Shown here one piece after another: positions 1,189 to 22,043 of a DNA stretch of 31,411 nucleotides. Origin of the DNA: a virus; the IMG/VR virus record IMGVR_UViG_2852270433_000001, positions 1 to 31,411 of that record; one strand, written 5' to 3'. The notes under the pieces are model-generated. The model saw only the letters and a program-made list of their open reading frames with translations, was not told where the DNA came from and ran no database searches. Made by a program: the position numbers and the translations under genes. Position 1 is the first letter of the stretch. Each line of letters starts with the position of its first letter.

Positions 1189-1204
1189 CCTCCTTCCCCT
1201 CCCT

Positions 1205-1976: not shown

Positions 1977-1987
1977 GATGTGTCTGG

Positions 1988-4132: not shown

Positions 4133-4183
4133 GTCATTGATGGTGATGTCGTGATTCCTGGTGTTTGTAAAATGGTTAGTGGT

Positions 4184-4720
4184 TTATTTCTTATCGGCGA
4201 TCTTTTGGAGCAACGTCAGAACCTTCGCACACCAGAAACAGCCAAGGCAGGAGAAGGCACCTGATAACAAATAGATGAAGGCTAGTGGAAACTGATGATG
4301 ATAAAAATTGCTTAAAAATAATACAATACCAGCAATAATCGTCATTGCTCCCACTACTTGAAACATCCTCTCTACTGTAATTTTTAGAGGCTCTTGCTCA
4401 TTTAATTCTTGGATTTTGAGCAAAGCACGTTTTTCTTCTCTCTCATTTAAGAAGGCTTCTCTTCTTTTTTCTGACTTATCTAAAAGAACTTCAACAAAGC
4501 TTTTCTTTGGTTGCCGCTCCGTTTCTTTTTCTTCTGCTTTTCTATTGGTGTTTTTGGTCAGATAATAAACCTTTCCAAAGGATAGCCATTCTTGACCCCC
4601 TTCAGGGCAAACAAGAGTTTCTGACAAGATTTTTCCTTCCTTATACAAGGCTTCAAGTTCTTCAAAAGAGTAGGGTCCCTCAGCATTGTTTGAGTTGGAA
4701 GCGACGTAATAATTAGCCAT
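4184..4720 (-). CDS. GYF_2 (DUF4339)-like domain protein with C-terminal transmembrane helices
   Basis: The N-terminus YYVASNSNNAEGPYSFEELEALYKEGKILSETLVCPEGGQEWLSFGKV fits the GYF_2 pattern (GP.s..el..l...G.i...tlv...g...W). A charged coiled linker is followed by two hydrophobic helices. ATG start. The DNA is low GC compared with its neighbours. Confidence 0.6.
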   Translation of the reverse strand: MANYYVASNSNNAEGPYSFEELEALYKEGKILSETLVCPEGGQEWLSFGKVYYLTKNTNRKAEEKETERQPKKSFVEVLLDKSEKRREAFLNEREEKRALLKIQELNEQEPLKITVERMFQVVGAMTIIAGIVLFLSNFYHHQFPLAFIYLLSGAFSCLGCFWCAKVLTLLQKIADKK

Positions 4721-4766
4721 AGTGGTATGGTGCTATAATCCGGCGTTAGTGCAAGCCTAAAAGCTG

Positions 4767-6635
4767 TTAAAAGCCTCCGGCAAGCCGGTTTATCCCTGTT
4801 TGCAATCTTCCGTTGCCCTTCTGCACTATCTTCAAGATTTCCTCGAATTTAGCATCTACATATTTTTTCGTATCTGCCTGCACGGCATTTACCTTGCTCG
4901 CCTGTGCTGTTGCTATGGTTTGTAAATAATCCATCAATTTTTTTGAGTATTGTCCATTTTCTCTCAATACGTTTTCCATAACATCAAACACGCCTTGAAG
5001 CTCGCTGGGGTCGATTTCCGTATCTTTGTCCGAAATGCTTTCCGCAAGGCGTTTCTTCCCTGCATTCAAAGCTTCGCGGGCAGCTGCAATCCGGGCGCGT
5101 TGCTGGGCGGTAGGATGCTCGGGTACGCCTTCAAGGGCAATGCCGCGGATCATCGCCTGCTGCCTCTCGGCGGTCTGCTTTTGAGCCTCCCTTTCGGCCC
5201 GTTCACGAGCCTTCTTTATTTTTTCTTCATTTCTTCGGGCTTCCTCTGCTTCTTCCCTGTCTCTTTGCAAGTTAAATGATTTAACCTTGCCGGCGTCTAT
5301 TTGGTTTTGAATAGCGTCGATTTGTTCCATGTTTTTGATAGATGCTTCGGTCGAAGCCATTGCATCCCCCAAAGAACCGGCTTTCTCTGTTAAATCATCA
5401 AACTGTTTTTTCGCGGCGTCCGTATTCTTCTTAAACTCTTCTACCGCAGCTGATGCTTGTTTGAAGCGACTATTAACATCTGTTCCTTGTCTATAGTCAA
5501 ATTCAAGATTTACGCCGCCGGCTCTTAACGAATCCTGAAATTCTCCCAATCCAGATTGGGCAGCATTTAATTCTTCTTGCGCTGCTGTACGAGCAACTAA
5601 AAGACGTTGATTTTCCTCTTGTGCTTGAATTAAGTATCGTTGAGCGTCCTCACGTCGAGTGGCATTTGGGGCATATTTCACTCCTATTTCTCTTCTTTGT
5701 ATTGCTTTTTGTATTTCGGGTAATTTTTCATTTATCTCATCGATACTCCGTTGAGCACGTTCTTGCTGCTGTAAAAGGCCAAGAATATTTTGAATAGAAG
5801 GAAGGTTCCCCTGCTTGAATTGCATATCAAAAGCATGAGCTTCGGCCGCATCTCTGGCCTTGACTGCCTCCGCAAGCTGTTTCCCCATATCCATATAGTT
5901 AGCTTGCTCTACGCTTAAATCACGCTGGCGGATTTTCTGGTCCAGATTCTGATCCACCATCATCAGGCCATAATCTCGTTGCCTCTTGGTGATTCTTCCT
6001 TGCTGGTAGTCATTTTCCAGGTTGACGCGCTCAAGCTCTGCCTGGCGTGTATCAATTCCTTTCTTACGGGCCGCTTCCTCCCGTCTCAAGCGAATTTGTT
6101 TTTCAAGTTCTTCCGTTTGATATTCGAATTCACGGGTAATGCCCTTTACATAGTTTTGATACTCTTTATTAACGGTTTTGGTGCGTTCTTGCTGGTTGAA
6201 TTCCTGCAAAGCCTGATAACTTGCCCGGATAGCCTGACGAGAAGCTTCGGCAATCTCTTTGCTATGCTCCTTCATTTTTTTGGCGAGATCCGCCGACTTG
6301 TCTTCCGTTTTTCCCATCCATTCGTAAAGCTTCGCTCCGGCCAGAACGGCAAGCGACATCGCGCCGGCCAGACCTGCGCCGCCTCCGAATCCTATCACCA
6401 GCCCGGGAATGTTGTTCAGGATGCCCTTGATGCCGTACTGCACGTCGTCCATGAAATAGGCGACTTGCAGCAACCCCTGTCCCATGTTCTTCACGCTCCG
6501 GGTTGCTTGCTGGCTCCCCTTATCAAGTTGTTCCGTCGACTTGTTCAGCACGTCGATCTGCTGTTTGGCTTCTTCCACGCCTTTTCCGTCCAGCGTGGAC
6601 TTGAGTTTGATTTCGATTTCTTTCTTGGTGGCCAT
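4767..6635 (-). CDS. Tail tape measure protein
   Basis: 622 aa. A Gly-rich hydrophobic segment (GILNNIPGLVIGFGGGAGLAGAMSLAVLAGAKLYEW) is followed by about 480 aa of E/K/R/Q/A-rich coiled coil. The position in the tail module fits. Confidence 0.75.
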   Translation of the reverse strand: MATKKEIEIKLKSTLDGKGVEEAKQQIDVLNKSTEQLDKGSQQATRSVKNMGQGLLQVAYFMDDVQYGIKGILNNIPGLVIGFGGGAGLAGAMSLAVLAGAKLYEWMGKTEDKSADLAKKMKEHSKEIAEASRQAIRASYQALQEFNQQERTKTVNKEYQNYVKGITREFEYQTEELEKQIRLRREEAARKKGIDTRQAELERVNLENDYQQGRITKRQRDYGLMMVDQNLDQKIRQRDLSVEQANYMDMGKQLAEAVKARDAAEAHAFDMQFKQGNLPSIQNILGLLQQQERAQRSIDEINEKLPEIQKAIQRREIGVKYAPNATRREDAQRYLIQAQEENQRLLVARTAAQEELNAAQSGLGEFQDSLRAGGVNLEFDYRQGTDVNSRFKQASAAVEEFKKNTDAAKKQFDDLTEKAGSLGDAMASTEASIKNMEQIDAIQNQIDAGKVKSFNLQRDREEAEEARRNEEKIKKARERAEREAQKQTAERQQAMIRGIALEGVPEHPTAQQRARIAAAREALNAGKKRLAESISDKDTEIDPSELQGVFDVMENVLRENGQYSKKLMDYLQTIATAQASKVNAVQADTKKYVDAKFEEILKIVQKGNGRLQTGINRLAGGF

Positions 6636-6653
6636 GGTGGTAGATGTGGAGGG

Positions 6654-6935
6654 TTATCGTTGAGCGCGGGCTTCTTCGATGACGAAAGCGGGCAGTTTCC
6701 CGGCGGTGAGGGCGTTTCGGGATTCTTCCACGCGTTTCTGCAAGGATTCCAGGAGCATCATATCCCGGATGATGACGCCGAAGGCATGGGAAGGATCGAC
6801 ACCGGCGGCTTGAGAGGCAGTAAAGACGCTTTCCTTCAATTCCTGCACCGCCTGGTTCAGGTTCGGGTTCTTGCCGCACTCTTCGGCAAATTCGACAAAA
6901 AGCCGTTCTATTCCGTTTTGTTGTTGTTCGTTCAT
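6654..6935 (-). CDS. Small protein immediately upstream of the tape measure (possible tail assembly chaperone)
   Basis: 93-aa acidic ORF with an ATG start, 18 nt upstream of the TMP start. The call is by position only. Confidence 0.35.
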   Translation of the reverse strand: MNEQQQNGIERLFVEFAEECGKNPNLNQAVQELKESVFTASQAAGVDPSHAFGVIIRDMMLLESLQKRVEESRNALTAGKLPAFVIEEARAQR

Positions 6936-6949
6936 GATGGATTATTCTG

Positions 6950-8464: not shown

Positions 8465-8470
8465 GGGCGG

Positions 8471-9001
8471 TTACTGGTTGAGGTAGTCCTTCACCCCTTC
8501 GGCAATCGCTTCGGCAATGCGTCCGGGATGGTCCTTCATCAGGGCGGCGTTTTCAGGATTGGTGATAAAGCCGCATTCGCACAGCACCCACGGGCAGCGG
8601 GTCCTTTTCAGGACGGCGAGGCCCGGACGCGACTGTACGGTATTGGCCCGGCCGGGAAGCAGGCGGGAAAGAGGTTCCGCGATGCACATGGCCAGCCTGC
8701 TGCCCTTGACGCTGCCCGGGTAAAAACACACATGGGCCCCATGGGCCTGGGGATTGTCGGAAGCGTCGCAATGCAGGGAGATGCCGAAGTCATAGCCGCC
8801 TTCATTGGCGGCCTTGATGGTGGCGTTCAAATCCTGGGCATTGCTCATGCCAGGAAAGTCAATCACGTCCACCTTGGCGCCCAGCTGCCGCAGCATGGGG
8901 GCGAGGCATTCGGCGATCGTCACGGCGACGGCGTGTTCTTCAAGCCCGTTCCCGCGGGCTCCGGTGTTGTTGGCATGGCCAATATCAATGGCTATTTTCA
9001 T
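8471..9001 (-). CDS. N-acetylmuramoyl-L-alanine amidase (Amidase_3 family) endolysin
   Basis: 176 aa. The MKIAIDIGHANNTGA ... ISLHCDA ... ECGFITN pattern is typical of AmiC/CwlD-type zinc amidases. A strong SD (AAGGAG) lies 8 nt before the ATG. There is no signal peptide. Confidence 0.9.
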   Translation of the reverse strand: MKIAIDIGHANNTGARGNGLEEHAVAVTIAECLAPMLRQLGAKVDVIDFPGMSNAQDLNATIKAANEGGYDFGISLHCDASDNPQAHGAHVCFYPGSVKGSRLAMCIAEPLSRLLPGRANTVQSRPGLAVLKRTRCPWVLCECGFITNPENAALMKDHPGRIAEAIAEGVKDYLNQ

Positions 9002-9066
9002 GAGTATTCTCCTTTAATGGTTGGTTGTTAATATGATTGAACTTGTAAGAAAAACTTTACAGTTGG

Positions 9067-9219
9067 TCAGTGTTCATACATCCGAAGGAACACAAGGGAC
9101 GCAATGGGGAAGCAGAACGCGGAAATGCCCGCCGTCGTATCGCCGCACGCGGCAAAAACGCCGGCCATCACGCACCCCATCAGCGGCAGAAGAACGGAAG
9201 GGGACAGTAGCTTATTCAT
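9067..9219 (-). CDS. Small hydrophobic protein with lipobox-like LMGC (spanin/holin-accessory candidate)
   Basis: 50-aa ORF below the track cutoff: MNKLLSPSVLLPLMGCVMAGVFAACGDTTAGISAFCFPIASLVFLRMYEH. Its ATG overlaps the upstream stop as ATGA (9216-9219). It lies between a TM/coiled-coil gene and the endolysin. Confidence 0.35.
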   Translation of the reverse strand: MNKLLSPSVLLPLMGCVMAGVFAACGDTTAGISAFCFPIASLVFLRMYEH

Positions 9220-9467: not shown

Positions 9468-9471
9468 GGTG

Positions 9472-9762
9472 TTACTTCTTGGAGGGAATTACCTGCACAA
9501 CGGGCGGAACGTCCGTTTCGGGTTGCGCCTGTGAATAGGAAATATGGCCCGGTTCCAGCACCAGGCAGGAGCCGTCCTTGCATACGACCGTCTTGTCCGG
9601 CGTTACGTCCACGGAATGGCCGCAGCCGGGTTGCGTCAGAATCCCCGCGGCAACCAAGGCCCCAATCACAGCTCCGGCAATGACTTTTGCCCAACTCTCT
9701 TTAATACCCCAACCGGTCAGGAGACCAGTCAGCCAACTCACTTTTTCTTTATTCGTACTCAT
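9472..9762 (-). CDS. Small membrane protein (holin candidate)
   Basis: I chose the internal ATG at 9762 (MSTNKEKVSWLTGLL...), which abuts the stop of the upstream gene at 9764. This gives 96 aa with the TM helix WAKVIAGAVIGALVAAGILT. The longer track ORF (to 9987) would overlap the upstream gene. Confidence 0.4.
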   Translation of the reverse strand: MSTNKEKVSWLTGLLTGWGIKESWAKVIAGAVIGALVAAGILTQPGCGHSVDVTPDKTVVCKDGSCLVLEPGHISYSQAQPETDVPPVVQVIPSKK

Positions 9763-9763
9763 A

Positions 9764-10168
9764 TTATTTAATAGTGAAATGCTTGAAAAACGCCACCGCG
9801 GCGGGGGCGGTAATGACGAACTCCGGGTAGTCGCGGTCCGTAAAAATCCTGCGCCCGCCCTGTGGATTGACGGCTTCCACGGCCAGATACACCGCCTCCA
9901 CTCCCACAATGGGGTCATCCTCATTGACAGGATCCGGGTAATACCAATCCTGTGTTGCCCACACCTGGACGGCCTGCCAATCCTCACCCAATCCCACCAG
10001 CGCGGCCACTACGGCGGCCATGGCCGGGGTCTGGTTCGCCGGAATCTCGTCCTGCGTATAGCGGTCTATGCGGGTGTACCCTTCCTCGTCCTGGTAAATG
10101 GCCGCCAGGCCGAATTCATCCCATTGACCGGGTTTCGGGAACTGTATTTGTATCTCGGAATTATTCAT
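9764..10168 (-). CDS. Hypothetical acidic protein downstream of the fibre gene (possible fibre assembly factor)
   Basis: 134-aa ORF. Its ATG overlaps the fibre stop as ATGA (10165-10168). No motif recognised. Confidence 0.4.
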   Translation of the reverse strand: MNNSEIQIQFPKPGQWDEFGLAAIYQDEEGYTRIDRYTQDEIPANQTPAMAAVVAALVGLGEDWQAVQVWATQDWYYPDPVNEDDPIVGVEAVYLAVEAVNPQGGRRIFTDRDYPEFVITAPAAVAFFKHFTIK

Positions 10169-12105
10169 GATTCTATCGGCACGTTAATATCTTCAAAAGC
10201 TGCGGTTTCCTCGGATTCAACGGCATTCGTTCCTATCGCGTCCAACCCGTAGAAAAGCGGGTTGATATTCCCCGGCTGGTAATAGGCATATTCGCCGGGC
10301 CCGGCGTAAACGGAAGCCGTTCCGCTGGTGGTGTTGATCACGTCCGTCACCCACCGGGAAATGCCGACGCCGGTCTCAAAATTGGAGACGCCCCGGCAGG
10401 TGGCGATCTTGAACAGGTTGTTGGTCTGTGCCCCCGTGACCAGCAGCCAGAGGCCTCCCAGGTTTTCGTAAACGCGGCTGTTGGCAACCGTCTGCTGCTG
10501 GTAAATAATCTTGCACACCGTCCACGGGACGGGTTCGTTTTGCGTTGCCGGGATAAAGCTGGTCGTCGTCTTGACCTGCCATCCATCGGCGGACGTCAGC
10601 GCATAAATTTCCCGCACGCGCACCGTATATCCGTTGCGCGTTGTATCGCGCACATTGTCAAAGGTGATGTCCAGAATCTCCCCGGAATTAAATGCCAGGT
10701 CATTGCCCGGAATAATCGTGTAGGAGTCGGTGGTAAGGTCCGTCCTGATTGTTTTTGCCCCCCGGCCGATGCCCATCGTTATCTTCGCCGCGGCCGTGGC
10801 GCGCCAGACAAATGAAAAGCCGGCCCAGGAAGAATAATTCCATTGGGACCTGGGGCCTTCAAAGGGGGCCTGAATAGTCGTGTGAGCGCCCGCAGGAATG
10901 CCTATCATGGCCATCTGGTAGGGAACCGTTTTAGTCACCGTTGCCGTGCCGGTAGTTGTCAGCGAGTCCGTGTTCAGGAAAGCCGCCGCCGCATAAGCAT
11001 TGGCTGCGCCTCCCATGCCCGCGGCATACAGGCGGTTGACGCCGGATTCATTGGTCGGCGCTCCCACGGCCAGCGGAATGTTGACGCCTCCATTGGCGTT
11101 GATGGCGCTTGAAAACGTGGACGCCCCCGCGCAGTTGAAGCTGGCGCCCTGGGAAATATTCAGGATGCCGGATTCTACCATGAATGTCCCGCGCAGCCAG
11201 CCGCCCGAACGAAGATCAACGGACTGATAAAACCTGGTGATTCCGTAAATCTGATTCAGGGTTCCGGCGCTTCCGCTTCCGTCCGGGTTGTTGACGACCA
11301 GAGGCCCGTTGATAGTAGCCGATTCAGCGGTCAGGGCTCCCCCGATGTTGACGTCGCCGACGTTGGACGTCAGCGTCCCGGGCTCTCCCTTTTCCCCTTG
11401 TGGTCCCTGGGGTCCTGCCGGACCTTCCGGCCCCTGGGGGCCCTCCGGGCCTTGGGGCCCCGCCGGGCCTGTCTCTCCCTTCGGTCCCTGCTCGCCCGTA
11501 TCTCCCTGAGGTCCACGTTCCCCGGTTTCGCCGCGTGGGCCTTGCGGCCCTTCGGGGCCGGTTTCACCCCGTTCACCCTGCGGGCCTGACGGTCCCTGAG
11601 GACCAACATCCCCGCGGGGAATCGTGAAATTGAGCAGATAGGATCCTGATTCAGTTCCCTTGACGGCTTCCGCGTTGGCGGGCGTCCCCGGTTCCCCGGT
11701 GGTGACCTGACCCACGGACAGATTAAAATTCTCGGCGTACTTTTTGGCCTGTTCCGCGTACCAGGCGGCGCTGGACGCGTTGTCAAGCATGACCTGCACG
11801 CAGCCGCTTCCTTCCGGCAGCTGCACGACGACCGCGCCCGCCACGGCCTGCTGTTCGTCCGGCAAGTCCGGCGTCACCCGGCCCGAAGAAACAAAGCGTC
11901 CGTAGAGGAGCGGGTTTTCCTCGCTGCCGTCGTCCATGAAGACGTCGTAGGACCACATGCCCGCGGGAACCGAAGCCCAGGAAATAACGCCGTTGCCCTC
12001 GTCATCGCGTGAAAAGCCGAACTCCGTCACGCCCGTCTTGAGACGGACAGCGCCGCGCAGGGTGACGCCGCTCATATCGACGGGATCGCCCTGAAAATCC
12101 ACCAC
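10165..12105 (-). CDS. Collagen-like repeat tail fibre
   Basis: 646 aa with about 26 uninterrupted G-X-Y triplets ([28 protein letters not shown]...) preceded by [13 protein letters not shown], followed by a ~400-aa beta-rich C-terminal region. The track start is GTG at 12105. An in-frame AGG at 12169-12171 lies directly after the upstream terminator. Confidence 0.8.
11377..11613 (-). repeat. Collagen triple-helix G-X-Y coding repeat
   Basis: Gly at every third residue over about 79 aa (residues ~165-243 of the fibre ORF). Confidence 0.9.
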
Positions 12106-12174
12106 GCGGACGACCAGGGACTGGTTCAGCCCTGTGACGGTCCGGATATCGTATTTGCCTGCCTGCTGCCTGAG

Positions 12175-12209
12175 AAAAAAAAGAGGATGCGGGGGCGCAG
12201 CGCGCCCCC
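12175..12209 (-). terminator. Rho-independent terminator/attenuator inside the late operon
   Basis: On the minus strand: GGGGGCGC-GCT-GCGCCCCC (8-bp GC stem, 3-nt loop), then GCATCCTC and a run of 8 T. It lies 13 nt after the stop of the 185-aa gene. Confidence 0.6.
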
Positions 12210-12221
12210 TGGTGAAACGCG

Positions 12222-12779
12222 TCAGGAACCCGGCGCCGGCGTCACGTCCTGCACATTGGAGGGCGTGAACTGGTACTTGCCGCGATAATCCATTTCGAAC
12301 TCGAACTGGGGTGAAGCAATCGCCGTGGTGTGTTCGGGATCCTGCAGGAGGCGCAAGGCGCCATGCGCCGTTCCGACCAGATAGATAGTACCCACGTCGT
12401 TCTGATACCAGAAGTGAAGATACCCCTCAATCTTATTGTCGCCGCCATGTCCGACGGTGGTCGATTCCTCGCCGTTGGCGGGAGGCGCTCCCAAGGCGAA
12501 AGAAAGCTGGAACCATTCGGGGGACATGTCCGGCGTGGTGAAGGTCATCCGCTTGCCGGTCGTGGTGTTCTTGCGCTGCTGGCGATATCCCAGCGCACCG
12601 CCGTAAAAGCGCGTCACTTCCCCTTCGACCTGGGTGGCGACGGACTGGAACGCTCCCAGCAGCCCGAAGCTCACCCAGGGCTGTTCAGGCCCGGCGGTCG
12701 GATCCGTTGGCGGAGACGTCGGAGGCGTCGGAAACTGGTCCGGCCCGGTGACGTAAGAAGCTCCCTCGTCTTCAGTCAC
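12222..12779 (-). CDS. Structural protein, putative major tail protein
   Basis: 185 aa from GTG at 12779. It is followed by a terminator, which suggests abundant product. The frame reads as coding for another 30 codons upstream (ATTYDPTFTNRNVTPQITGVLAIFLPDGIK), back to an AGG at 12870-12872 with no canonical start in between. Confidence 0.5.
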   Translation of the reverse strand: MTEDEGASYVTGPDQFPTPPTSPPTDPTAGPEQPWVSFGLLGAFQSVATQVEGEVTRFYGGALGYRQQRKNTTTGKRMTFTTPDMSPEWFQLSFALGAPPANGEESTTVGHGGDNKIEGYLHFWYQNDVGTIYLVGTAHGALRLLQDPEHTTAIASPQFEFEMDYRGKYQFTPSNVQDVTPAPGS

Positions 12780-12886
12780 CTTGATGCCGTCGGGGAGGAA
12801 AATAGCTAGAACGCCGGTAATCTGCGGCGTTACGTTGCGGTTGGTAAAGGTGGGGTCGTATGTAGTAGCCCTGATGCTTGAAACGG

Positions 12887-13084: not shown

Positions 13085-13347
13085 TTGATGTCAACAAGGT
13101 TGAGGGTTGCCAGAGCTTCCGCGATGGTCGCGGGAAGTTCCGGGGTGTCGGTTTTCATGGAGAGGCTGATCACCAGCCCTCCGTCCAGTTCGGCGCGGGT
13201 GCGAATGACCCGCACGGCCTTCTTGTCAGTTGTTTTCTTCTTTTCGTCCGGTGCGGACGGCGTTTTGCCGGCGGTTTCGGAAGATTCGTCCGGCTTCGGG
13301 ACGTTCTTCCGCACGGCCTTCTTGTCAGTTGTTGATGCTTTGTTCAT
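13081..13347 (-). CDS. Hypothetical small protein with Lys/Thr-rich disordered N-terminus
   Basis: 88-aa ORF with an ATG start. It contains an internal TTDKKAVR peptide repeat encoded by a 25-bp direct DNA repeat (13210-13234 and 13309-13333). Confidence 0.5.
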   Translation of the reverse strand: MNKASTTDKKAVRKNVPKPDESSETAGKTPSAPDEKKKTTDKKAVRVIRTRAELDGGLVISLSMKTDTPELPATIAEALATLNLVDIK

Positions 13348-13855
13348 AGAATTCTGGCTTGGTTCTCATGTTAATATTAACCGGGACACGGTAATCCACG
13401 GTCAAAACGTTCATTTGCCGCTTCTCGCCGTCAATGATGGCGGAGGAGGAAAAACGGCCTTTGATTTTGGGTTTCATCATCGCCGGTGCGGAAAAGGGAA
13501 GAGGATTCCAGTTCCACAGGGCTTCTTCAATCACGTCCCCCACCGCCCGAAGATAATAATCAGGCGTCAGGCATGCCGCCGGGAACAGGGACGCGTTGTG
13601 ATAAATGGAGGCGATGATGAAATACTGACGCCACATCGTCGGCGCTTCCGTTTGTCCGTGCCCGTCCTGGTATTCTGCCGCGTCCCCGGGGCACACCAAA
13701 ACGACGCCGTTGTTGCCCATCGCCGACATGATGATGTCATTGGCGGCATACTGGGGGTCGAAGGGCCGTTCGAAGATGTGGCAGTTCAGCGCTCCCAGGC
13801 TCTTGAGGCGTTCAATGAGGCGCCGGCACATGGTCTGGTCGATGGATGGGATCAT
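13325..13855 (-). CDS. Head-tail joining / tail completion protein (by position)
   Basis: I chose the ATG at 13855 (MIPSIDQTMCRRL...), which overlaps the upstream stop as ATGA. This gives 176 aa. The longer track form would overlap the upstream gene. Confidence 0.4.
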   Translation of the reverse strand: MIPSIDQTMCRRLIERLKSLGALNCHIFERPFDPQYAANDIIMSAMGNNGVVLVCPGDAAEYQDGHGQTEAPTMWRQYFIIASIYHNASLFPAACLTPDYYLRAVGDVIEEALWNWNPLPFSAPAMMKPKIKGRFSSSAIIDGEKRQMNVLTVDYRVPVNINMRTKPEFYEQSINN

Positions 13856-14517
13856 GGTTCGTTTCCGATGTTGGCAAGGTAGGTTTCCGCGGCGCGCTGC
13901 GCCATCCGGTCCATCGTCGGGAGAATTCCCGGCGTGGGCGGGATCGTGACTTCGCGGCACAGCACGTAGAGCACGTCGCCCGTTCCGGCTCCCTGGCGGA
14001 ACAGTTTGCGGGCCGCTTTCTTTCCGGTGGCTGATTGCGCCGTCTTGAGGATGAGGACGCCGGTCACATTGCCGTTGCGTCCTCCGTTCTTGGAGGGGAT
14101 GAATTGCAAGTCCTCTTTGCGGAAGCCGGCGCTGTAAATGCTTCGGGCCCCGCCATGGCCGCGAGGGGCGTTGATGGTGGGGATAGCCAGGTTCCGGATC
14201 GGGTTCCCGGTGATTTCCGAGGTGCGCCCCGTGGGGCGGAGCGGCCCGCCCAGATAACCCTGCGTGCCGATCCAGTGAAGACCGATGCCGCGCCAGGCGA
14301 TGGAGACGCTGACGCCCTCGGCGGTTTCTTCCATCGTGGTGGCGTCCGCCGCGCCGTCGTAGTAGTCCTTGCCCTGCTGGCGCAGGGTTTCCTGAATGAG
14401 CAGGCTCAAGGCGACGCCGGACTTGCGGAGGGCGGTTTTGTGCCGGGCCGCGGACGGCTCCATGTCGGCAAACGCCCGGTCAATCTCGTTCTGGTCGATG
14501 TGGATGGTTACAGCCAT
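13852..14517 (-). CDS. Virion morphogenesis / head-tail joining protein (by position)
   Basis: 221-aa ORF with an ATG start that overlaps the upstream gene end by 10 nt. Confidence 0.4.
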   Translation of the reverse strand: MAVTIHIDQNEIDRAFADMEPSAARHKTALRKSGVALSLLIQETLRQQGKDYYDGAADATTMEETAEGVSVSIAWRGIGLHWIGTQGYLGGPLRPTGRTSEITGNPIRNLAIPTINAPRGHGGARSIYSAGFRKEDLQFIPSKNGGRNGNVTGVLILKTAQSATGKKAARKLFRQGAGTGDVLYVLCREVTIPPTPGILPTMDRMAQRAAETYLANIGNEP

Positions 14518-15644
14518 TTGGAGGGTAAAACGTAAGGGGTGGGCAGTTCCACGCGGAGGGCTCCGGCGACGTCTTCCACTTTCTTGACGTGCCCGGAATT
14601 AAGGCGCCAGGTGAATTCTCCCTCTTCCTTTGGGGAAACGGGGATATACTGGCGGGAGGACGCGGCGGCCACGTCTGCGGGCCGGGCGTACCAGACGCCT
14701 TCCGGTTCGGAGAACAGGCGGTCCAGCAGTCGGTCCAGGTAGAGGGCTGCCAGCGTTCCTGCCACGGCTCCCCCGGCCGCCGCCAGGCGGAAGGCCTGGG
14801 ACTGGCGCAAGGGGATCTCTTCCGGGAAATCCCCGGACAGGACGTCCGCCAGTTCCGCGTCCGTGTAAGGGCGCGTCCCGTTCGGGTCCGTGTAGGCAAA
14901 GGTGGTATTGCCGTCGTTCCCGGTCTTGACGCGCACGGCGTCTTTCAGGATGCGGCGGATCTTGTTCCTGTTGGATTCCGTCACGCCTTTGGCATTGCTT
15001 TCCAAGGTGGCGTTGAAGCTGGCGGGAGCGGGACGGACGCGCGACACGTCCAGCCCGGCCGCGCGGGCTTCTTCGGCGCCCACGGGGGCAATGTTCATTC
15101 CGGACAGGTAGTCAAAGGGCGGGTAGGGAGTTCCGAACCGCGAGAGGCGGATCCAGATGTCGGAGGCCGCCAGCGCATAGCCGACTGTTTCTCCGCGGAT
15201 GAAACCGGATGATACCGCTTCCGTGGCTTCTTCTTCCAGCCCGGCCCGGGCACGGTTCCAGCGTTCGGCCCAATAGCGCGGGTCTTCCCGCCCCTGGGAG
15301 CGGTAAAATTTGAAGACGGCCGTGTCTTCGTCCTGCGTCCAGTCGTACCAGTTCCGATAGCCGTGGGCCATGGCCGCGTTGGTTTCCATGACGACCTGGA
15401 TGCGGACCCAGGAGGACAAATCCTGAATGCCTCCCTGCCCCGTCGCCGGGGGGCGGTATCCCTGCTGCCGCAGGGTTTCGCGGATGGCCCGCTGCGCTTC
15501 CTCGTAGCTCAAGGCTCCCGAGGCCACCTGTGACGCCTTGTCCTCAAAATCGGACAGGATGACGCCGGGTTCCACCCCGGACACGAAGAAGGCGCGCTCG
15601 GCGTAGTCGTTGGCAATCATTTCCATTTGGGCGGCGGTCATCAT
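14508..15644 (-). CDS. Minor head / morphogenesis-like protein (weak SPP1 gp7 / Mu gpF-like pattern)
   Basis: I chose the ATG at 15644 (MMTAAQMEMIANDY...), which overlaps the upstream stop as ATGA. This gives 378 aa. The segment RIQVVMETNAAMAHGYRNW resembles the conserved R..i..Te...a...G core of head morphogenesis proteins. Confidence 0.4.
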   Translation of the reverse strand: MMTAAQMEMIANDYAERAFFVSGVEPGVILSDFEDKASQVASGALSYEEAQRAIRETLRQQGYRPPATGQGGIQDLSSWVRIQVVMETNAAMAHGYRNWYDWTQDEDTAVFKFYRSQGREDPRYWAERWNRARAGLEEEATEAVSSGFIRGETVGYALAASDIWIRLSRFGTPYPPFDYLSGMNIAPVGAEEARAAGLDVSRVRPAPASFNATLESNAKGVTESNRNKIRRILKDAVRVKTGNDGNTTFAYTDPNGTRPYTDAELADVLSGDFPEEIPLRQSQAFRLAAAGGAVAGTLAALYLDRLLDRLFSEPEGVWYARPADVAAASSRQYIPVSPKEEGEFTWRLNSGHVKKVEDVAGALRVELPTPYVLPSKWL

Positions 15645-16117
15645 CTGTAGGTGCTTCTCATCGGATTGAACCAGGGGCGGCGCGTGTAGCGCGGCATCAT
15701 GTAGGCGGGATCCGCGGGAGCGGAGCCGTCCACGCTTTCCGGAAGCATGTCCCCTTTGGCGTAGAGCGCCAGCATCGCGTCCGCTGATTCGGCGGCCTTC
15801 TGGCGCGTCTCGGTCAGGTTGAGCTGGTAGCGCAGATAGAGCTGCCGGATAATCAGCGGCCATGCCAGGGACCGCATGCTTTGAGGGATGTCGTACATGC
15901 CGCTGTTTTGGAGCGATTGCCGCAGGGCGAGGTTGTTGGCCAGCGCCCCGCGGATGGTCATGCAGACATCGTTGACCGCCTCCATCATGACGTCCCGGTA
16001 GTCCAGGCTGCGCTGCTCCCCGGAGGTCACCAGGGCGTCGCGTTCGGCGGTGTTGAGGCCGAGCAGCCGATCGGCTTCGTCGGTGGAAATCGTGGACCAG
16101 GCAGGAAAGGCGGACAT
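15641..16117 (-). CDS. Head-tail connector-like protein
   Basis: 158-aa ORF directly after the capsid gene, with an ATG start. The call is by position. Confidence 0.4.
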   Translation of the reverse strand: MSAFPAWSTISTDEADRLLGLNTAERDALVTSGEQRSLDYRDVMMEAVNDVCMTIRGALANNLALRQSLQNSGMYDIPQSMRSLAWPLIIRQLYLRYQLNLTETRQKAAESADAMLALYAKGDMLPESVDGSAPADPAYMMPRYTRRPWFNPMRSTYR

Positions 16118-16137
16118 GATGGAGGCGGGCGTTGGGG

Positions 16138-16974
16138 TTAATCGGCGGAGGCCGTGTTGATGCGGATGATGGCGCCGGGGTTGGTCAGCTTGGTCAGCGA
16201 ATAGACCCGGTTGGTCACCTTTGTCTCCTTGTTGGTCGGGAAGTATTCCGTCGTTACTTCCCGCTGGAATTGTCCATTAAGCGCAAAGGTCTTGATAGCC
16301 GAAGCGTCAAACTGCGTCGGGGAATCTTCTTTATAGAGGATGTAGACGTCGTCTTCCATCATCGTCTTTCCTTGACCGGACGGATCATAGAAAGGCATGT
16401 TGTTGACGAAGACTTCATTCATCCTCATGAACAATGATCTGTTCAACAGATCTTCATTGAAGAGGCCGACGCTGTTGTATGACACCACCTCTCTTGCCAG
16501 CGGATTAGCCCGAAGACGGGCCCAGGCATTGGAACCGAAAACAATGGTATTCGGCATTTTCCCGGCAGTGGCATTGATGGTGCGGATCGCGTTGTCCAAA
16601 TCCGTCAGCGGGTTTTTCTGCGGATTATCCCAATCGCCATAACCGGACGCTGCCGGAACCTGGCTTTCGATGAGCTTGGCGCGCTGGTATTCATAAGACG
16701 TGACGAATTTCGATTCCAGGAAGCGGGCATGAGCGAGCAGAATCGCCTGCGCCTTCTCCCTGTTGACCCCCAGCAGAATATCGGGAATCGGATCCGTCAG
16801 CGCGTACCCCTGAAGGGTGTCGGTTTCGTTCCTTCCGAGCATGGAGGTCTGGCGGGGCGGTTCTCCCGGCGCGACCTGGATGGGCTCCACCGTAAACGCG
16901 GCCGGCGTGTCCCAGACCATATACTGGAAAGAGATGTCGTAAACCGGAACAAGCGGAGCGATGCGATTGATCAT
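16138..16974 (-). CDS. Major capsid protein (lambda gpE-like pattern)
   Basis: 278 aa from the ATG at 16974. NRIAPLVPV near the N-terminus and the downstream layout resemble the capsid-E family. It follows a decoration-like gene, as in lambda D-E. The frame is open and coding-like for 28 more codons, back to an AGG at 17059-17061 (ANLFYSAYQFTDVL...). Confidence 0.65.
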   Translation of the reverse strand: MINRIAPLVPVYDISFQYMVWDTPAAFTVEPIQVAPGEPPRQTSMLGRNETDTLQGYALTDPIPDILLGVNREKAQAILLAHARFLESKFVTSYEYQRAKLIESQVPAASGYGDWDNPQKNPLTDLDNAIRTINATAGKMPNTIVFGSNAWARLRANPLAREVVSYNSVGLFNEDLLNRSLFMRMNEVFVNNMPFYDPSGQGKTMMEDDVYILYKEDSPTQFDASAIKTFALNGQFQREVTTEYFPTNKETKVTNRVYSLTKLTNPGAIIRINTASAD

Positions 16975-17094
16975 GGAGTCCCGTTCCGTATTCCCCGCAC
17001 CGACGGAGAAAGAGGTCAGGACGTCCGTGAACTGATAAGCTGAATAAAATAGATTAGCCCTTGTGGTTGGTCTTTCTAATGGTTAGAGGTGAGG

Positions 17095-17526: not shown

Positions 17527-17546
17527 TGGTTTTTAGCGGTTAGTGG

Positions 17547-18671
17547 TTATCGTTCGTTGACAACAATGAAGCCTTCGTCGGTCGCTTTCTGGTAGGCGTC
17601 GTATCGCTTCATTCCTCCCTTCATGAGTTCGTTCACACGGTTGTTGAATGCGTCAATGGATTCCTTCTTGCGAAACGGATCAGGGGGATTCAGCGTCGCG
17701 CGGCGGTTCAGAGGCGTCCTTTGCGGAAGCTTCTTCTGCTCCGGCTGCTCCTGTTTCGGTGCGGGCGCCTGGCGGTTGAGCGCACGGATAAAGGCGTTCA
17801 GCGCGGCGGGGCTTTCCCGGAGAGAGTTTTTCAGCTCTTCCCGGCGTTCTTCCGTGAATTCCTCGCGTTCTTCCTCGTCCAGCGCGTTTTCGTACGTGCT
17901 GACGGCGTCGTCCACTTCGGCGTTCACGTGATCTTTCTCACGCTTTTCCAGCGAGAGCAGTTCATCAAGTCGTCCGAGGATCGCCCTGCTCATATCGTCG
18001 GTGCCGTCAAATTCGACATCCAGCTTGTCAAGCAGGGAATCGAACAGGGCCCGCTGGGCCTTGTCCATTTCCTCGGATGGATATTCTCTATTGTCGTTGT
18101 CCATAATGGTGTTCTGGGTTGTTTTCCCCTCTTCGCGGGGCTTTTGTGGTTTGGGATCGCCCCCGGCCTCGTCTACAGAGGCGGGGGAAGTCTGTCGGTT
18201 GACCAGCGGCCGCTTTCCTTTGATGCGGGGCCGGTTGGTCAGGGCAAAGCCGGTCAGGCGCGAAGGACGGTAGACGCCGTCCGTCAAGGTCATACCTTCG
18301 CCGTATTCCGTGGATGACTGCGTGTATTCCTTGTCCTGCAGCATCTTCAGGCCGCGCGGCGTCCATTCGATGAAGCCGTAGAGTTCCAGCGTGCCGGAAG
18401 GGTCTCGGTAGGTGTCCAGCCTCTTGAGCCATCCGAGTGCCCGCGTATCGCGGGAAAGGTCGTGGCTCAGGTGGTCTCCGTCGATGAGCATGCCCGGGCC
18501 GTCAAAGGTGCGGGCGTTGAAGTCGTCCACCATGTCCTGGATCGCCTGCTCGTCGACGCGCAACACGGCGGGTCCTTCGCCGTAGTCGACGTCATGATCC
18601 CCGCTCTTCTCGACGTGGAACCAGCCGTTGGCGGGTCGGGACAGGTCATTGATTTGTTTGGTAGCGATCAT
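17547..18671 (-). CDS. Head maturation protease / scaffold fusion
   Basis: 374 aa. The N-terminal ~170 aa globular domain (GWFHVEKSGDH...DGDHLSHD) resembles Mu gpI-type proteases. The C-terminal half is highly charged coiled coil, typical of scaffolds. It overlaps the portal end. Confidence 0.5.
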   Translation of the reverse strand: MIATKQINDLSRPANGWFHVEKSGDHDVDYGEGPAVLRVDEQAIQDMVDDFNARTFDGPGMLIDGDHLSHDLSRDTRALGWLKRLDTYRDPSGTLELYGFIEWTPRGLKMLQDKEYTQSSTEYGEGMTLTDGVYRPSRLTGFALTNRPRIKGKRPLVNRQTSPASVDEAGGDPKPQKPREEGKTTQNTIMDNDNREYPSEEMDKAQRALFDSLLDKLDVEFDGTDDMSRAILGRLDELLSLEKREKDHVNAEVDDAVSTYENALDEEEREEFTEERREELKNSLRESPAALNAFIRALNRQAPAPKQEQPEQKKLPQRTPLNRRATLNPPDPFRKKESIDAFNNRVNELMKGGMKRYDAYQKATDEGFIVVNER

Positions 18672-20091
18672 CGTTAAATCCTTTCATGAGGCCGGCGTAA
18701 ATCATTTGCTGCAGCTGTTCATAAGCGTCGGGCGGAATGAGCGCTTTTTCCGGTTCCCTGTTGGACGCCGTCACCGGAACGGGTTCCTGCGTGTCCTCGA
18801 TGGACATGCCGATCTTTTCTTCGATTTCGGTTTTCTCGGGGCGGACGCCTCCGTCCGCAAGCGCGGCGATTTCCTCGGCCTTCTGCAGAGGCGTCTGGAC
18901 GGTGTCAAAGGTGATGTGGAGGCGGGCCAGCGGTTCGCCGTCTCCCAGGACTAGCGGGCTGATGGCGGCGTTAAAAGCTTCGGCGACTTTGGAGCAGACG
19001 GCGGAGACGACCGAATTCCAACTGTCCGTGTGCGCTCCCCCGGCCAGTGTGCCGGAGCCTGATTCATTCAGGACGGTCAGAGTGCCGGCCATTACAAACC
19101 TCACCTGGTCCTTGTCAGACATGTTGATTCGGGACAGGAAATAGTTTTCGTTGATGTTGGAGGCTTTCAACGGTTCTGCAGTGCAGCCGGGAGGCAGCAC
19201 GATGGAGGCTCCCGATTTGAGTTCCTCGCACGCTCGTTGCAGCGCGACCATGATGTCGGGGCTCGCGTCCTTCGGAGCCGTGATGATGGCCGGGGCGCTC
19301 CCGTAGCGGTCCATGTGATTGTCCCAGGTGACTTTGGCGTGATTCCGCTCAAAAGAGGCGCGGGTTGCCGGGAAAAGAATGGGGTTCCGGTGCTCCATGA
19401 CCACGAGCGTTTCATCTTCCACGCTTTCGCCGGTGTCGACGCCGATGTAACATTGAGGGTTAAACTGCCATTCGTTCAACTCTCCGGGGCGGACCCAATA
19501 GCGTTGGGGGATGAATTCAAAGCGGCGGCCCCAGGCGTCCTCAATGTATTGGAGATGGGCGTAACCGTAAAACATGGCGGAAGCCAGCTGACCGAAAGCC
19601 TGTTGAAGTCCGGTGACGGAGTGATAGAATTCTTCCAGCGCGTTCTGCTGTCGCTTGGATTCTGGGCTGTCGTCCGCGGCGTCAATCTTCCATCCCTGCA
19701 TGGAGACGCTTTCAATGAGCCGGGAATAGAGCATGCCCAGCAAGCCGTCCGAGTAGATGACCTCGTCCCAAATGAGCATTTGGCGGGCAAAGGCTCCCCG
19801 CCGCGCTTCGTTCCGGGCGTCAATCAGGGTTTGCAGGTCGGCGCCCTGTAACGGATCCCAATATTCAAACCATTGGGGCTGGTTAGGCTTCCTGCTCTGT
19901 TCCGTCAACGCTCGCCGGGTGAGTTCCGTTTCAAGCTCCTTGATTCTGGTCTCCTGTTGGGCGACCAGCTTCGGGGCGTTGAGGATATTTTTGACGGCGT
20001 TAAACCTGAGGCTAAAGAAAAGGTGGTTGCAGGGGAAGGAGTTGGACCTTCGATTCGGGGACAGGAACCCCGCGTGATACCGTTTCACCAC
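18646..20091 (-). CDS. Portal protein
   Basis: ~480-aa ORF directly downstream of terL and upstream of the protease. The track start (GTG at 20091) gives an implausible R/S/F-rich leader. The true start is probably further in (in-frame AGG at 20005-20007, or TTG at about 19911-19913). Confidence 0.65.
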   Translation of the reverse strand: MVKRYHAGFLSPNRRSNSFPCNHLFFSLRFNAVKNILNAPKLVAQQETRIKELETELTRRALTEQSRKPNQPQWFEYWDPLQGADLQTLIDARNEARRGAFARQMLIWDEVIYSDGLLGMLYSRLIESVSMQGWKIDAADDSPESKRQQNALEEFYHSVTGLQQAFGQLASAMFYGYAHLQYIEDAWGRRFEFIPQRYWVRPGELNEWQFNPQCYIGVDTGESVEDETLVVMEHRNPILFPATRASFERNHAKVTWDNHMDRYGSAPAIITAPKDASPDIMVALQRACEELKSGASIVLPPGCTAEPLKASNINENYFLSRINMSDKDQVRFVMAGTLTVLNESGSGTLAGGAHTDSWNSVVSAVCSKVAEAFNAAISPLVLGDGEPLARLHITFDTVQTPLQKAEEIAALADGGVRPEKTEIEEKIGMSIEDTQEPVPVTASNREPEKALIPPDAYEQLQQMIYAGLMKGFNDDRYQTNQ

Positions 20092-20104
20092 CCTGCGATT
20101 GTTT

Positions 20105-20142
20105 ACATATCGTCATATATTGATATCTTGATATGTTGTCAA
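20105..20142 (-). promoter_or_regulatory. AT-rich palindromic intergenic element between terL and portal, with a promoter-like -35
   Basis: Inverted repeat ACATATC (20105-20111) / GATATGT (20130-20136). Internal TGATAT direct repeats and an EcoRV-type GATATC. On the minus strand a perfect TTGACA (20137-20142), then 17 nt, then TATATG. Confidence 0.3.
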
Positions 20143-20145
20143 CAC

Positions 20146-21492
20146 CTAATATCTCCCGTAAGCGCGTTTTGATGACACGGGCCGGGCGTACCAGGCTCCC
20201 AGCGTCCGCGCCAGTCCGCTGTTCCGTCGCGCGTGCCAGGCCATGACGAGGGCGTCAGCCCGGTCTGGGGAGCGAACGCCCCGTTTCGCCATATCTTCCT
20301 TGCTCTCAATTCGGACGCGGCCTATTGCGTCGGTTTGGAGTCGGGGCGCCACAAGCTGTTCAATCGTATCCTCGTCAATATCGAGGATGAGTTCTTTTTC
20401 CTCGATGGCGCGTGCCAGGGCCCGCCATGCCTGGGCTCGCAGATTGACAAAGGCTTGTGTGTCATCCGCCGGGAATCCGCCCCGGTAGGAGTGCACCGGA
20501 AAGCCCTCGGCGCGGAAGTCGTCAATGATGGGCAGCCCCAGGCCGTCGCCGTCGGCAAAGATGCGGTCGGCGGAGATGCCGAGTTCGGCGGCCTTTCGGC
20601 GGAAACGTCCGCGTGCTCCTACAGTGTCCGGGTCAGACCAGTGGTCGGCGATGAAAAAACGGTTGCCCTGCCCGGCCGCGAAGACGTTTTCATCACCCCC
20701 CGCGGCAAAGTCGAAGCCGCCGCAGGTCTCCCCGGTGTCCAGGAAGGGAGGCGGGTTGTTGACCAGCTCCATGAGGGCACGTCGGGAAATGACGGATTGT
20801 CCGTCAAGGTCGGTGAATTCACCGAGGATGGCCGAGCGATAGAAGGAGGACTGCTCCCCGTATTCTTTCTTCAGGCGTTCGGCCTTGCCCGGGTCGTTGA
20901 TTTCGATGTGCGGGCAATCCTCGTATTTGACGCGGATCTTGTAGTAGAGGGATGAATTTTTGTGGAAGCAGTCGTAGAAGGTGCCGGAATCAGCACCCGG
21001 CGATGAGGTGATGAACGCGTGAAAGAGCGTGCAGCGTGAAACCGCGGTGAAGATGGAGTCGGGAATGGTCTTGGCCTCGTCAAGGACGTAAAAGACCGGG
21101 TCCACGTCGGGCGAGATTTTCGGATGCCACCCTTCCGCTCGTCCGGCGTTGTCGGTGGAGAATCCCACGGCAAACCCTCCCTCCGGCGTGCGGATCTCCG
21201 TCTTGTTGAAGGTCCATCCGGAAAAGAAAGGATTGTCCATGTAACGGCGAAGCGCGGGAAAGAGCTGCTTTTCTACCTGCATCCACGATGAGGACGTAAC
21301 CGGGACCTGTCCCCGCGGAAAACAGGTGAGAAAGTACAGGATGGCCGGCGCAATGCAGTTGCTCGTCTTTCCGGAGCCGTTAGGAGCGACCAGGGCCACG
21401 CTTTTCCCTCCCAGGGTCAGCTTGCCCAGGGATAACGCCTTGATGGCCTCCACCTGCCATGGATAGGGGTCAAGGCGGAGGATATGGCGCAA
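20146..21492 (-). CDS. terL: Terminase large subunit
   Basis: 448 aa. Walker A is VAPNGSGKTS, preceded by LDPYPWQ, with a C-terminal nuclease-like half. The track start is TTG at 21492. An in-frame AGG at 21517-21519 lies two codons after the terS stop. Confidence 0.85.
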   Translation of the reverse strand: MRHILRLDPYPWQVEAIKALSLGKLTLGGKSVALVAPNGSGKTSNCIAPAILYFLTCFPRGQVPVTSSSWMQVEKQLFPALRRYMDNPFFSGWTFNKTEIRTPEGGFAVGFSTDNAGRAEGWHPKISPDVDPVFYVLDEAKTIPDSIFTAVSRCTLFHAFITSSPGADSGTFYDCFHKNSSLYYKIRVKYEDCPHIEINDPGKAERLKKEYGEQSSFYRSAILGEFTDLDGQSVISRRALMELVNNPPPFLDTGETCGGFDFAAGGDENVFAAGQGNRFFIADHWSDPDTVGARGRFRRKAAELGISADRIFADGDGLGLPIIDDFRAEGFPVHSYRGGFPADDTQAFVNLRAQAWRALARAIEEKELILDIDEDTIEQLVAPRLQTDAIGRVRIESKEDMAKRGVRSPDRADALVMAWHARRNSGLARTLGAWYARPVSSKRAYGRY

Positions 21493-21525
21493 GAAGAAGC
21501 TGACGGGAAGTCGTGTCCTGACGGG

Positions 21526-21933
21526 TTAGGGATGGAGTTTGCCGGCGATGGTTTCCAGCGCGGTTTTCTCGTCTTCCTGCAGCTGGGCGAGCTGCTCGGG
21601 GTCCAGCGTGATTTTCCGTTCCAGCGGCGCGCCGGGAACGCCGGCGACATCCTGGCGGACCCGGTCTCCGAATTTCTCAGGCGCGAAGCGGGCGGCGACT
21701 TTCAGCCGGGTTTCAATGGCGAGCTTCTTCGCGGCGACGGAGGCGGAGCCGCATTCCGGGTCAAGGGCGACTTTCGCGGCTTCGTCGGCCAGCTCCTGAC
21801 AGGCGTCGAGCATGGCTTCCGACTGCGCTTCCCGCGCGCGTTGAATGAGTTTGGAAAACTCCGGCTTTGTTTCACGCCAGTTCCAGACCGTCCAGACCTC
21901 CGGCATGTGGTCATCGGAGCAGATGGATTTCAT
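21526..21933 (-). CDS. terS: Terminase small subunit (HTH-type); N-terminus apparently extends upstream of the first ATG
   Basis: Immediately upstream of terL. The in-frame upstream sequence KRKPGRPSLYTEELAAEIASRLANGET-MKSICSDDHMPEVWTVWNWRETKPEF...RAREAQSEAML matches the common GRP..YT.EL...I...L..G.S...IC....MP...TV..W....PEF...YARARE.Q pattern of small terminases. No ATG/GTG/TTG lies between the TAA-TAG stops (22042-22047) and 21933. Confidence 0.65.
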   Translation of the reverse strand: MKSICSDDHMPEVWTVWNWRETKPEFSKLIQRAREAQSEAMLDACQELADEAAKVALDPECGSASVAAKKLAIETRLKVAARFAPEKFGDRVRQDVAGVPGAPLERKITLDPEQLAQLQEDEKTALETIAGKLHP

Positions 21934-22043
21934 GGTTTCCCCGTTGGCAAGGCGGGAGGCTATCTCGGCGGCCAGTTCCTCGGTGTAGAGGCTCGGCCGC
22001 CCCGGTTTTCTTTTGGTGGTAGGTTTCTTTTTCCTGCGGCTCT

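Follow-up and report, generated by a model that had tools for sequence, protein, structure and literature searches.

A prophage-encoded tRNA(CCU) with initiator-like architecture and candidate AGG starts in the late genes of Akkermansia phages

The stretch of DNA analysed here (the window; 31,411 nucleotides (nt), IMG/VR record IMGVR_UViG_2852270433_000001) is a temperate siphovirus-like prophage of Akkermansia muciniphila, which over the late region is 88% identical to Akkermansia phage DTMo-2021a (CP084202.1). Seven of its late genes have an in-frame AGG at the place of the start codon, and the same region encodes a transfer RNA (tRNA) with an initiator-like body and the anticodon CCU, which reads AGG. 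Comparisons among relatives point to a phage-encoded initiator tRNA(CCU) that starts key late genes at AGG, a reading to which we give a probability of about 0.85. Well over 100 related Akkermansia phage loci have both the tRNA and the AGG starts.

The seven in-frame AGGs had been noticed in the original prediction, and all are confirmed at their coordinates on the minus strand, each upstream of the first ATG, GTG or TTG of a long open reading frame (ORF). The genes concerned, the endolysin gene and the tRNA gene are as follows.

21526..22035, minus strand: terS, 169 amino acids (aa); AGG at 22033-22035, first canonical start at codon 35 (ATG)
20146..21519, minus strand: terL, 457 aa; AGG at 21517-21519, 6 nt past the terS stop, first canonical start at codon 10 (TTG)
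18646..20007, minus strand: portal (Portal_Mu family), 453 aa; AGG at 20005-20007, 16 nt past the tRNA 3' end, first canonical start at codon 34 (TTG)
16138..17061, minus strand: major capsid protein (MCP), 307 aa; AGG at 17059-17061, first canonical start at codon 30
12222..12872, minus strand: tail gene (the '185-aa' gene of the original prediction), 216 aa from the AGG at 12870-12872, first canonical start at codon 32 (GTG)
10165..12171, minus strand: collagen-repeat tail fibre, 668 aa from the AGG at 12169-12171, first canonical start at codon 23 (GTG)
1988..4159, minus strand: large tail protein ('714-aa' in the original prediction), 723 aa from the AGG at 4157-4159, first canonical start at codon 10 (TTG)
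8471..9001, minus strand: endolysin (amidase); ATG start at 8999-9001 in the window, AGG in many tRNA-carrying relatives
20024..20097, minus strand: tRNA with anticodon CCU, 74 nt, between terL and portal, with an encoded CCA; identified by ARAGORN, the Rfam tRNA model and its cloverleaf fold

The AGGs are located 6-138 nt past the stop of the preceding gene, with the terS AGG heading the operon, and the genes that begin with them contain no in-frame stops. Across the 22 late genes, AGG accounts for 32 of 6532 internal codons, and at this rate the binomial probability of finding it at 7 of the 22 start positions is ~1e-11. The other 15 late genes start with ATG, in agreement with the earlier statement that the neighbouring genes start normally, and no further AGG starts were found in the late region of the window. 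Three other ORFs considered as start-less genes were rejected: 13325..14479 and 14508..16184 have ordinary ATGA overlaps, and 9472..10008 starts with ATG. An alternative portal AGG proposed at 20092-20094 corresponds to nucleotides 4-6 of the tRNA gene and is no start; the portal GTG at 20091 used in the program-made ORF list also falls within the tRNA gene.

The tRNA is present in 127 of the 139 loci scanned (IMG/VR, ENA and JGI metagenomes, and one metagenome-assembled genome from GTDB); the loci without it are contigs that end short of the site and one tRNA-less lineage. Among the tRNA-carrying loci, AGG occupies the start position of terS in 102/102, terL in 115/116, portal in 126/126, MCP in 114/115, the 216-aa tail gene in 83/83, the fibre gene in 77/77 and the large tail protein gene in 24/24. 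These counts reduce to 41 (terS), 40 (terL), 39 (portal), 34 (MCP), 35 (tail), 35 (fibre) and 22 (large tail) distinct 183-nt AGG contexts, and for terS the codon is AGG in 41/41. The AGG of the large tail protein gene is kept even in alleles of 74% identity, with synonymous changes between it and the TTG 9 codons downstream. In divergent relatives the start AGGs are never swapped for synonymous arginine codons, whereas internal AGGs mostly become CGG, CGC, CGT, AGA or AAG, indicating a constraint on the codon rather than on the amino acid. The DNA directly upstream of the AGGs is often unrelated among relatives or carries insertions and deletions, and the similarity breaks off there.

Alignment of orthologues, which the original prediction had proposed as a check, shows ATG or TTG at the aligned starts in a relative without the tRNA and conservation of the N-terminal stretches. 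This relative (loci L011-L013) is syntenic with the window, has 64% capsid identity and a GC content of 43%. In L011, ATG begins terL (MSKPYFPVSLFF vs. xTRLPVSFFL), MCP (MPNNFCTAVQFTDVL vs. xANLFYSAYQFTDVL), the 216-aa tail gene (MATTLSPDYANRNV vs. xATTYDPTFTNRNV; MATTLSPDY vs. xATTYDPTF) and, at the aligned position, the fibre gene (MSTPALYNIKTLTGL vs. xQQAGKYDIRTVTGL), and the portal has TTG at the same aligned residue (LIKTLKNLF vs. xFNAVKNIL). Exchanges between the two codons also occur within the tRNA-carrying clade. Locus L009 has ATG at the identical codon of MCP and one codon away in terL, while retaining AGG for terS, portal, tail and fibre; the terL ATGs of L009 and L011 lie within 1-2 codons of the AGG position. 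The endolysin start is polymorphic in the tRNA-carrying phages, with 12 AGG vs. 9 ATG distinct contexts. In L046 it reads TTAAAGGAGAATACCC AGG AAAATAGCC (around position 18292), and the endolysin AGG is preceded by a clear AAAGGAG Shine-Dalgarno sequence. Thus, AGG starts are not limited to genes that are devoid of such a sequence.

The segments between the AGGs and the first canonical starts evolve as coding sequence. Over these 160 codons the variable sites number 30, 24 and 107 at codon positions 1, 2 and 3 (chi-square ~80), a third-position bias that indicates purifying selection. In terS, Pfam Sf6_terminase covers residues 17-128 and PHROG 1482 covers residues 5-133, so a start at the codon-35 ATG would cut the domain. 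In MCP, the PHROG profile begins at residue 13, and distant PF03864 homologues align from residue 1. Five independent lines of sequence evidence (the tRNA-less relative, the ATG/AGG swaps, the conservation of AGG, the coding signal and the codon-level constraint) thus indicate that the AGGs occupy the genuine start positions. The start of the 723-aa tail gene is the least certain of the seven, as the comparison with tRNA-less orthologues covers terL, portal, MCP, the 216-aa tail gene and the fibre.

The tRNA between terL and portal (CGCAGGGUGGUGAAACGGUAUCACGCGGGGUUCCUGUCCCCGAAUCGAAGGUCCAACUCCUUCCCCUGCAACCA) is the only one that ARAGORN found in the window, and it was typed as tRNA-Arg(CCU). 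The Rfam tRNA model scores it at 52.7 bits and marks the first acceptor pair, 1:72, as non-standard. A search for an initiator-like tRNA with the anticodon CCU was among the checks in the original prediction, and one is present within the window itself. In E. coli, initiator tRNAs are set apart from elongators by a 1:72 mismatch, G2:C71, C3:G70, A73 and three G:C pairs in the anticodon stem. G2:C71, C3:G70 and A73 are the determinants for the formyltransferase, and the mismatch disfavours EF-Tu binding and favours formylation. The window tRNA has a C1xA72 mismatch, G2:C71, C3:G70, A73 and a GGG:CCC anticodon stem. With E. coli genes as stand-ins for the tRNA-fMet and tRNA-Arg(CCU) of the Akkermansia host, it is 70% identical to the initiator metZ vs. 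54% to the elongator argW(CCU), and in the acceptor stem and 3' end 16/18 positions match metZ vs. 6/18 for argW. E. coli argW has G1:C72, and the tRNA-Glu and tRNA-Cys genes that flank related loci start with a G that is complemented by C at position 72.

Sequence variation among the relatives supports a functional tRNA. In 21 distinct sequence variants with 21 modelled pairs, 20 of the pairs are kept in every variant (420/420 cells), with compensatory double changes in nine. Position 1:72 is C.A in 21/21 variants and the CCT anticodon is invariant; a single transition would close the 1:72 pair, and it was never observed among the 21 variants. C3:G70 and A73 are present in 21/21 and G2:C71 in 19/21 (G.U in two). 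At position 37, most variants have G and a few have A. The pattern of pairing indicates selection on the gene as a tRNA of initiator architecture that carries the mismatch. The scan of GTDB species representatives found one prophage of this kind (L046). A CCU initiator tRNA with the canonical CGCGGGG/CCCCGCA acceptor was not found in the IMG/VR scans, which gave no sign of the system outside this phage group.

The alternative that survives best, albeit as an improbable one, is that the AGGs are true starts read weakly by the host tRNA-fMet as a near-cognate codon, and that the phage tRNA is an elongator tRNA-Arg(CCU) supplied for a rare codon. AGG is indeed rare in these genes, phage-encoded elongator tRNAs are common (PMC10264068), and the native initiator tRNA starts promiscuously, though slightly, at many codons including AGG (bioRxiv 10.64898/2026.04.16.719103). 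However, C1xA72 is invariant in the 21 variants while all other pairs are maintained, and the acceptor stem is initiator-like and unlike that of argW. Among the features expected of an elongator of this type, the CCU anticodon was found, and a Watson-Crick 1:72 pair, A20 with A37 and AGG-enriched genes were not. AGG makes up 0.49% of the internal codons in the window vs. 0.34% in the tRNA-less relative, and this similar use with and without the tRNA argues against a role in codon supply. Weak near-cognate initiation is also implausible for the most abundant virion protein, and it leaves the ATG and TTG codons at these sites in the tRNA-less relative unexplained.

Translation from the downstream canonical codons, with AGG as a Shine-Dalgarno-like element or an ordinary arginine codon of an upstream extension, is very unlikely. 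Gene callers do annotate these genes from the first ATG, GTG or TTG (278 aa for MCP), AGG is the core of the Shine-Dalgarno motif, and terL and the 723-aa gene each have a TTG just 9 codons downstream that is a possible alternative start and thus also counts against initiation at AGG. However, no canonical start lies 5-13 nt past any of the seven AGGs, which rules out AGG as a Shine-Dalgarno sequence, and ATG replaces AGG in frame in L009, in L011 and in the endolysin polymorphism. The 9-34 codons past the AGGs vary mainly at the third position and are covered by Sf6_terminase, PHROG and distant capsid homologues, and the similarity among relatives that is lost right upstream of the AGGs further opposes a downstream start.

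The comparative data effectively refute errors of sequencing or assembly, as well as ATG-to-AGG mutations that inactivate a decaying prophage. The window does carry one probable 1-nt deletion relative to all relatives (in a methyltransferase gene), but the AGGs recur in isolate genomes, in IMG/VR, in metagenomes of ENA and JGI, in a virome contig and in phage DTMo-2021a, the genes are under purifying selection, and the matching tRNA is conserved with compensatory changes. The original prediction had left four explanations side by side, of which three fall and the fourth, an unusual initiation mechanism, gains support from the initiator-like CCU tRNA in the window. Coincidence is contradicted by AGGs that are invariant over 22-41 distinct contexts per site while internal AGGs drift freely, and a base-calling artefact by the recurrence of the same AGGs in well over 100 independent assemblies (isolates, viromes and metagenomes). 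The silencing of a dead prophage is not compatible with the purifying selection on the N-terminal segments (30/24/107) in a family whose members include a phage genome in the databases and a virome contig. Two further ideas were discarded. Six of the seven sites read CAGG, and a methylation-linked CATG-to-CAGG base-calling artefact is ruled out by the more than 100 independent assemblies and by C-preceded ATG starts in the same genome. Pairing of the C at position -1 with G37 of the tRNA has no support: C also stands at -1 before 7 of the 15 ATG genes, and the A37 variants keep the -1 C.

Several observations weigh against initiation at AGG by the phage tRNA. The evidence is comparative sequence evidence throughout, the tRNA-less negative control is one lineage (three contigs), and the tRNA was compared with E. 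coli stand-ins. The tRNA itself departs from an initiator in several places. The three anticodon-stem G:C pairs (29-31:39-41) are present in 17 of 21 variants, the other four having two G:C pairs and an A:U or U.G, and position 11:24 is U:A in 21/21 variants instead of the A11:U24 of initiators. The D-loop is short (AACGGUA, with U20 in the numbering used here), and A20, an identity element of the E. coli arginyl-tRNA synthetase (ArgRS), is absent. U55 is almost universal in tRNAs; position 55 in the T-loop is C in most variants here (UCCAACU or UCCAAUU), and a few have the usual UUCAAYU. The tRNA gene is also itself part of the late region and follows terS and terL, and a simple timing in which the tRNA comes first and the late genes come after it is therefore not obvious.

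In the mechanism that we propose, the prophage encodes a dedicated initiator tRNA with the anticodon CCU in place of CAU, and AGG would be the real start of terS, terL, portal, MCP, the two tail proteins and the fibre, and in many relatives of the endolysin too. The host initiator tRNA is mismatched at the middle base of AGG and would initiate poorly there, so that efficient synthesis of these proteins would be expected only when the phage tRNA is present. Profile searches of the window proteins found no synthetase-, formyltransferase- or initiation-factor-like genes, and thus host enzymes must do the work of charging and initiation. A host synthetase would load the phage tRNA with its amino acid, and the initiation machinery of the host would deliver the charged tRNA to the P site of the ribosome, where we infer that this tRNA works, rather than in elongation. 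In E. coli, ArgRS uses C35 and U36, and the methionyl-tRNA synthetase (MetRS) needs CAU. The CCU anticodon thus makes the tRNA an unlikely substrate for MetRS, and by these E. coli rules the inserted residue is probably arginine, possibly formylated. The MCP would then begin with (f)R-ANLFYSAYQFTDVLTSFSVGAGNTER or with ANLFYSAY....

Such a system is feasible, as shown by engineered E. coli in which, out of 12 non-canonical pairs, AGG with an i-tRNA(CCU) gave the highest expression in all strains tested (bioRxiv 10.64898/2026.04.16.719103); that study left the amino acid at the AGG start undetermined. By analogy with the stop-codon recoding of late genes (PMC10879173, PMC11210395), we conjecture that the purpose could be a private translational gate or threshold on assembly, packaging and lysis. 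Taken as a whole, the arrangement is likely to be a natural orthogonal initiation channel, in which the starts of packaging, capsid, tail and sometimes lysis genes are reassigned to AGG with a matching initiator tRNA(CCU), and (formyl-)arginine N-termini and a leaderless terS may follow from it.

Promoter-like elements precede both the tRNA and terS.

20114..20142, minus strand: promoter-like element at the tRNA, TTGACA-17 nt-TATATG, ending 16 nt before the tRNA 5' end in the short gap past the terL stop
22044..22073, minus strand: promoter-like element at terS, TTGAAT-18-TATAAT, with the -10 hexamer ending 8 nt before the terS AGG

The promoter-like flank of the tRNA is conserved in relatives, and the tRNA-less L011 has TTGACA-17-TATGTT at the equivalent place. 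We infer that the element acts as the tRNA promoter; its TATATG fails the -10 rule of the promoter scan at the last base, G. At terS, a TAnnnT hexamer is located 6-9 nt before the AGG in most of 32 distinct upstream contexts, which comprise at least five unrelated modules. The position of the -10 hexamer 8 nt before the AGG predicts that the terS mRNA starts at about the AGG and is probably leaderless or has a leader of ~2 nt. Recognition of such a 5'-proximal AGG would rest almost wholly on codon-anticodon pairing. The leaders of the AGG genes are A/C-rich and without a Shine-Dalgarno sequence, as are those of most ATG genes here.

Two other elements near the starts had been put forward earlier. 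The purine motif AGAAAGAC, said to precede the MCP AGG and the ATGs at 22924 and 23211, has exact matches at 17070-17077 (minus strand) and 22909-22916 (plus strand) and none before the ATG at 23211; two matches are no excess over chance (27 of 100 shuffles reach two). The T-run directly before the fibre AGG had been called a terminator. Window positions 12172-12221 (minus strand) hold a GC-rich hairpin (GGGGGCGCGCTGCGCCCCC), 8 nt and then a T8 run, and the arrangement is conserved in relatives. The hairpin and T-run fail the criteria of the terminator scan, in which the hairpin misses the spacing rule. They may nevertheless separate the head and tail genes transcriptionally from the fibre and lysis genes.

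The prophage has an integrase (profile matches) at one window end, and a RecET/methyltransferase early region and the long late operon on the minus strand. The order of the latter is terS, terL, portal (Portal_Mu), Mu-like protease, MCP (Phage_cap_E), tail genes, collagen-repeat fibre, endolysin, tape-measure candidate and 723-aa tail protein. The gene between the endolysin and the 723-aa tail protein is the probable tape-measure gene and is without a family match. A small DNA-methyltransferase-like gene (window 25352-25821, minus strand) is split into the overlapping ORFs 25576-25821 and 25352-25717. All relatives examined carry an additional base near 25661 and an intact ORF of 158-159 aa; the window thus has a probable 1-nt deletion, either a real frameshift or a sequencing error.

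Three side observations concern the related loci. Loci L143 and L155 lie on one 55-kb contig of an isolate genome (IMGVR_UViG_2850266918_000004), where the 723-aa tail gene is present twice, with identities of 96% and 91% to the window gene; this suggests two related prophages or a tandem arrangement. The flanks of loci L143-L166 contain host-type tRNA genes with normal GGTTCGA T-arms, read as tRNA-Glu UUC and tRNA-Cys GCA, which may mark integration sites of the integrase-bearing prophage. In L107 (ULRR01030325.1, positions 565-9000), the 3' end of terL and a tRNA(CCU) at 565-638 are followed by an integrase gene (767-1966) and no portal. Next come a terS homologue (60% identity) whose ORF begins at an AGG at 2130, a Rha-like regulator, a second, divergent tRNA(CCU) at 3253-3326 that also has C1xA72, and excisionase-like and primase genes. 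L107 seems to be a satellite or other mobile element beside the phage tRNA, with its own tRNA copy and an AGG-start terS.

In hundreds of contigs, the MCP of these phages stands in public databases as a protein of 278 aa under the name 'major capsid protein / hypothetical protein [Akkermansia muciniphila]' (clusters P0017, P0025, P0030 and P0039). This form lacks the first 29 residues because gene callers disallow AGG starts, and the same N-terminal truncation must affect the annotated terS, portal, tail gene and fibre. Initiation by the phage tRNA, if true, would explain this systematic mis-annotation of a very common Akkermansia prophage, and gene finders and tRNA classifiers should then seek 1:72-mismatch tRNAs with non-CAU anticodons. 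To our knowledge, it is treated as a near-universal rule of bacteria and their viruses that AUG, GUG and UUG starts are read by a single tRNA-fMet. Searches of open-access papers and bioRxiv preprints yielded no natural initiator tRNA whose anticodon is other than CAU, and the ones described are engineered. The phage system would then be the first case known in which the start signal has been reassigned in nature, by the same AGG/CCU pair that was built in the laboratory, and a new layer of phage control in which the host alone cannot start essential late proteins. It would also provide a ready-made orthogonal initiation part and raise testable questions on formylation, on proofreading by IF2/IF3 and on how stable proteins with an N-terminal arginine are.

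Comparison with known systems places the phage tRNA closest in body to bacterial tRNA-fMet (E. coli metZ/metW/metV/metY), with which it shares C1xA72, G2:C71, C3:G70, A73, three G:C anticodon-stem pairs and a near-identical acceptor. It differs in having CCU instead of CAU, U11:A24, a shorter D-loop and mostly C55, and in being phage-encoded. With this anticodon it cannot read AUG, GUG or UUG, and it is thus an initiator-like body but no tRNA-fMet. Non-standard starts that control the amount of a protein are known, and the AUU of infC is a regulatory start of this kind read by the normal initiator. The GTC start of sigR is another example (PMC5472188). Both rely on weak tRNA-fMet pairing under IF3 scrutiny in single genes, with no dedicated tRNA.

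Phage elongator tRNAs, which serve codon compensation or the evasion of tRNA-targeting defences (PMC10264068), are likewise encoded by tRNA genes in phage genomes. The tRNA described here is distinguished from them by its 1:72 mismatch, initiator-like acceptor, lack of internal AGG enrichment and link to start positions. The recoding of stop codons by suppressor tRNAs of gut phages (PMC10879173, PMC11210395) is similar in that a phage tRNA alters the meaning of a codon in late, structural and lysis genes, which the host alone misreads and which are mis-annotated. The AGG starts follow the same late-gene pattern, as all of them belong to genes for packaging, the head, the tail or, in relatives, lysis. 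However, stop recoding acts on the stop codon during elongation, whereas the signal proposed to be reassigned here is that of the start, which an initiator-type tRNA would read in the P site. The engineered amber initiator (bioRxiv 10.1101/524249) and i-tRNA(CCU) (bioRxiv 10.64898/2026.04.16.719103) have the same design of an initiator body, an altered anticodon and a complementary non-canonical start. These are laboratory constructs, whereas the phage tRNA is natural, is under selection, is tied to 7-8 essential genes and is widespread in human-gut Akkermansia prophages.

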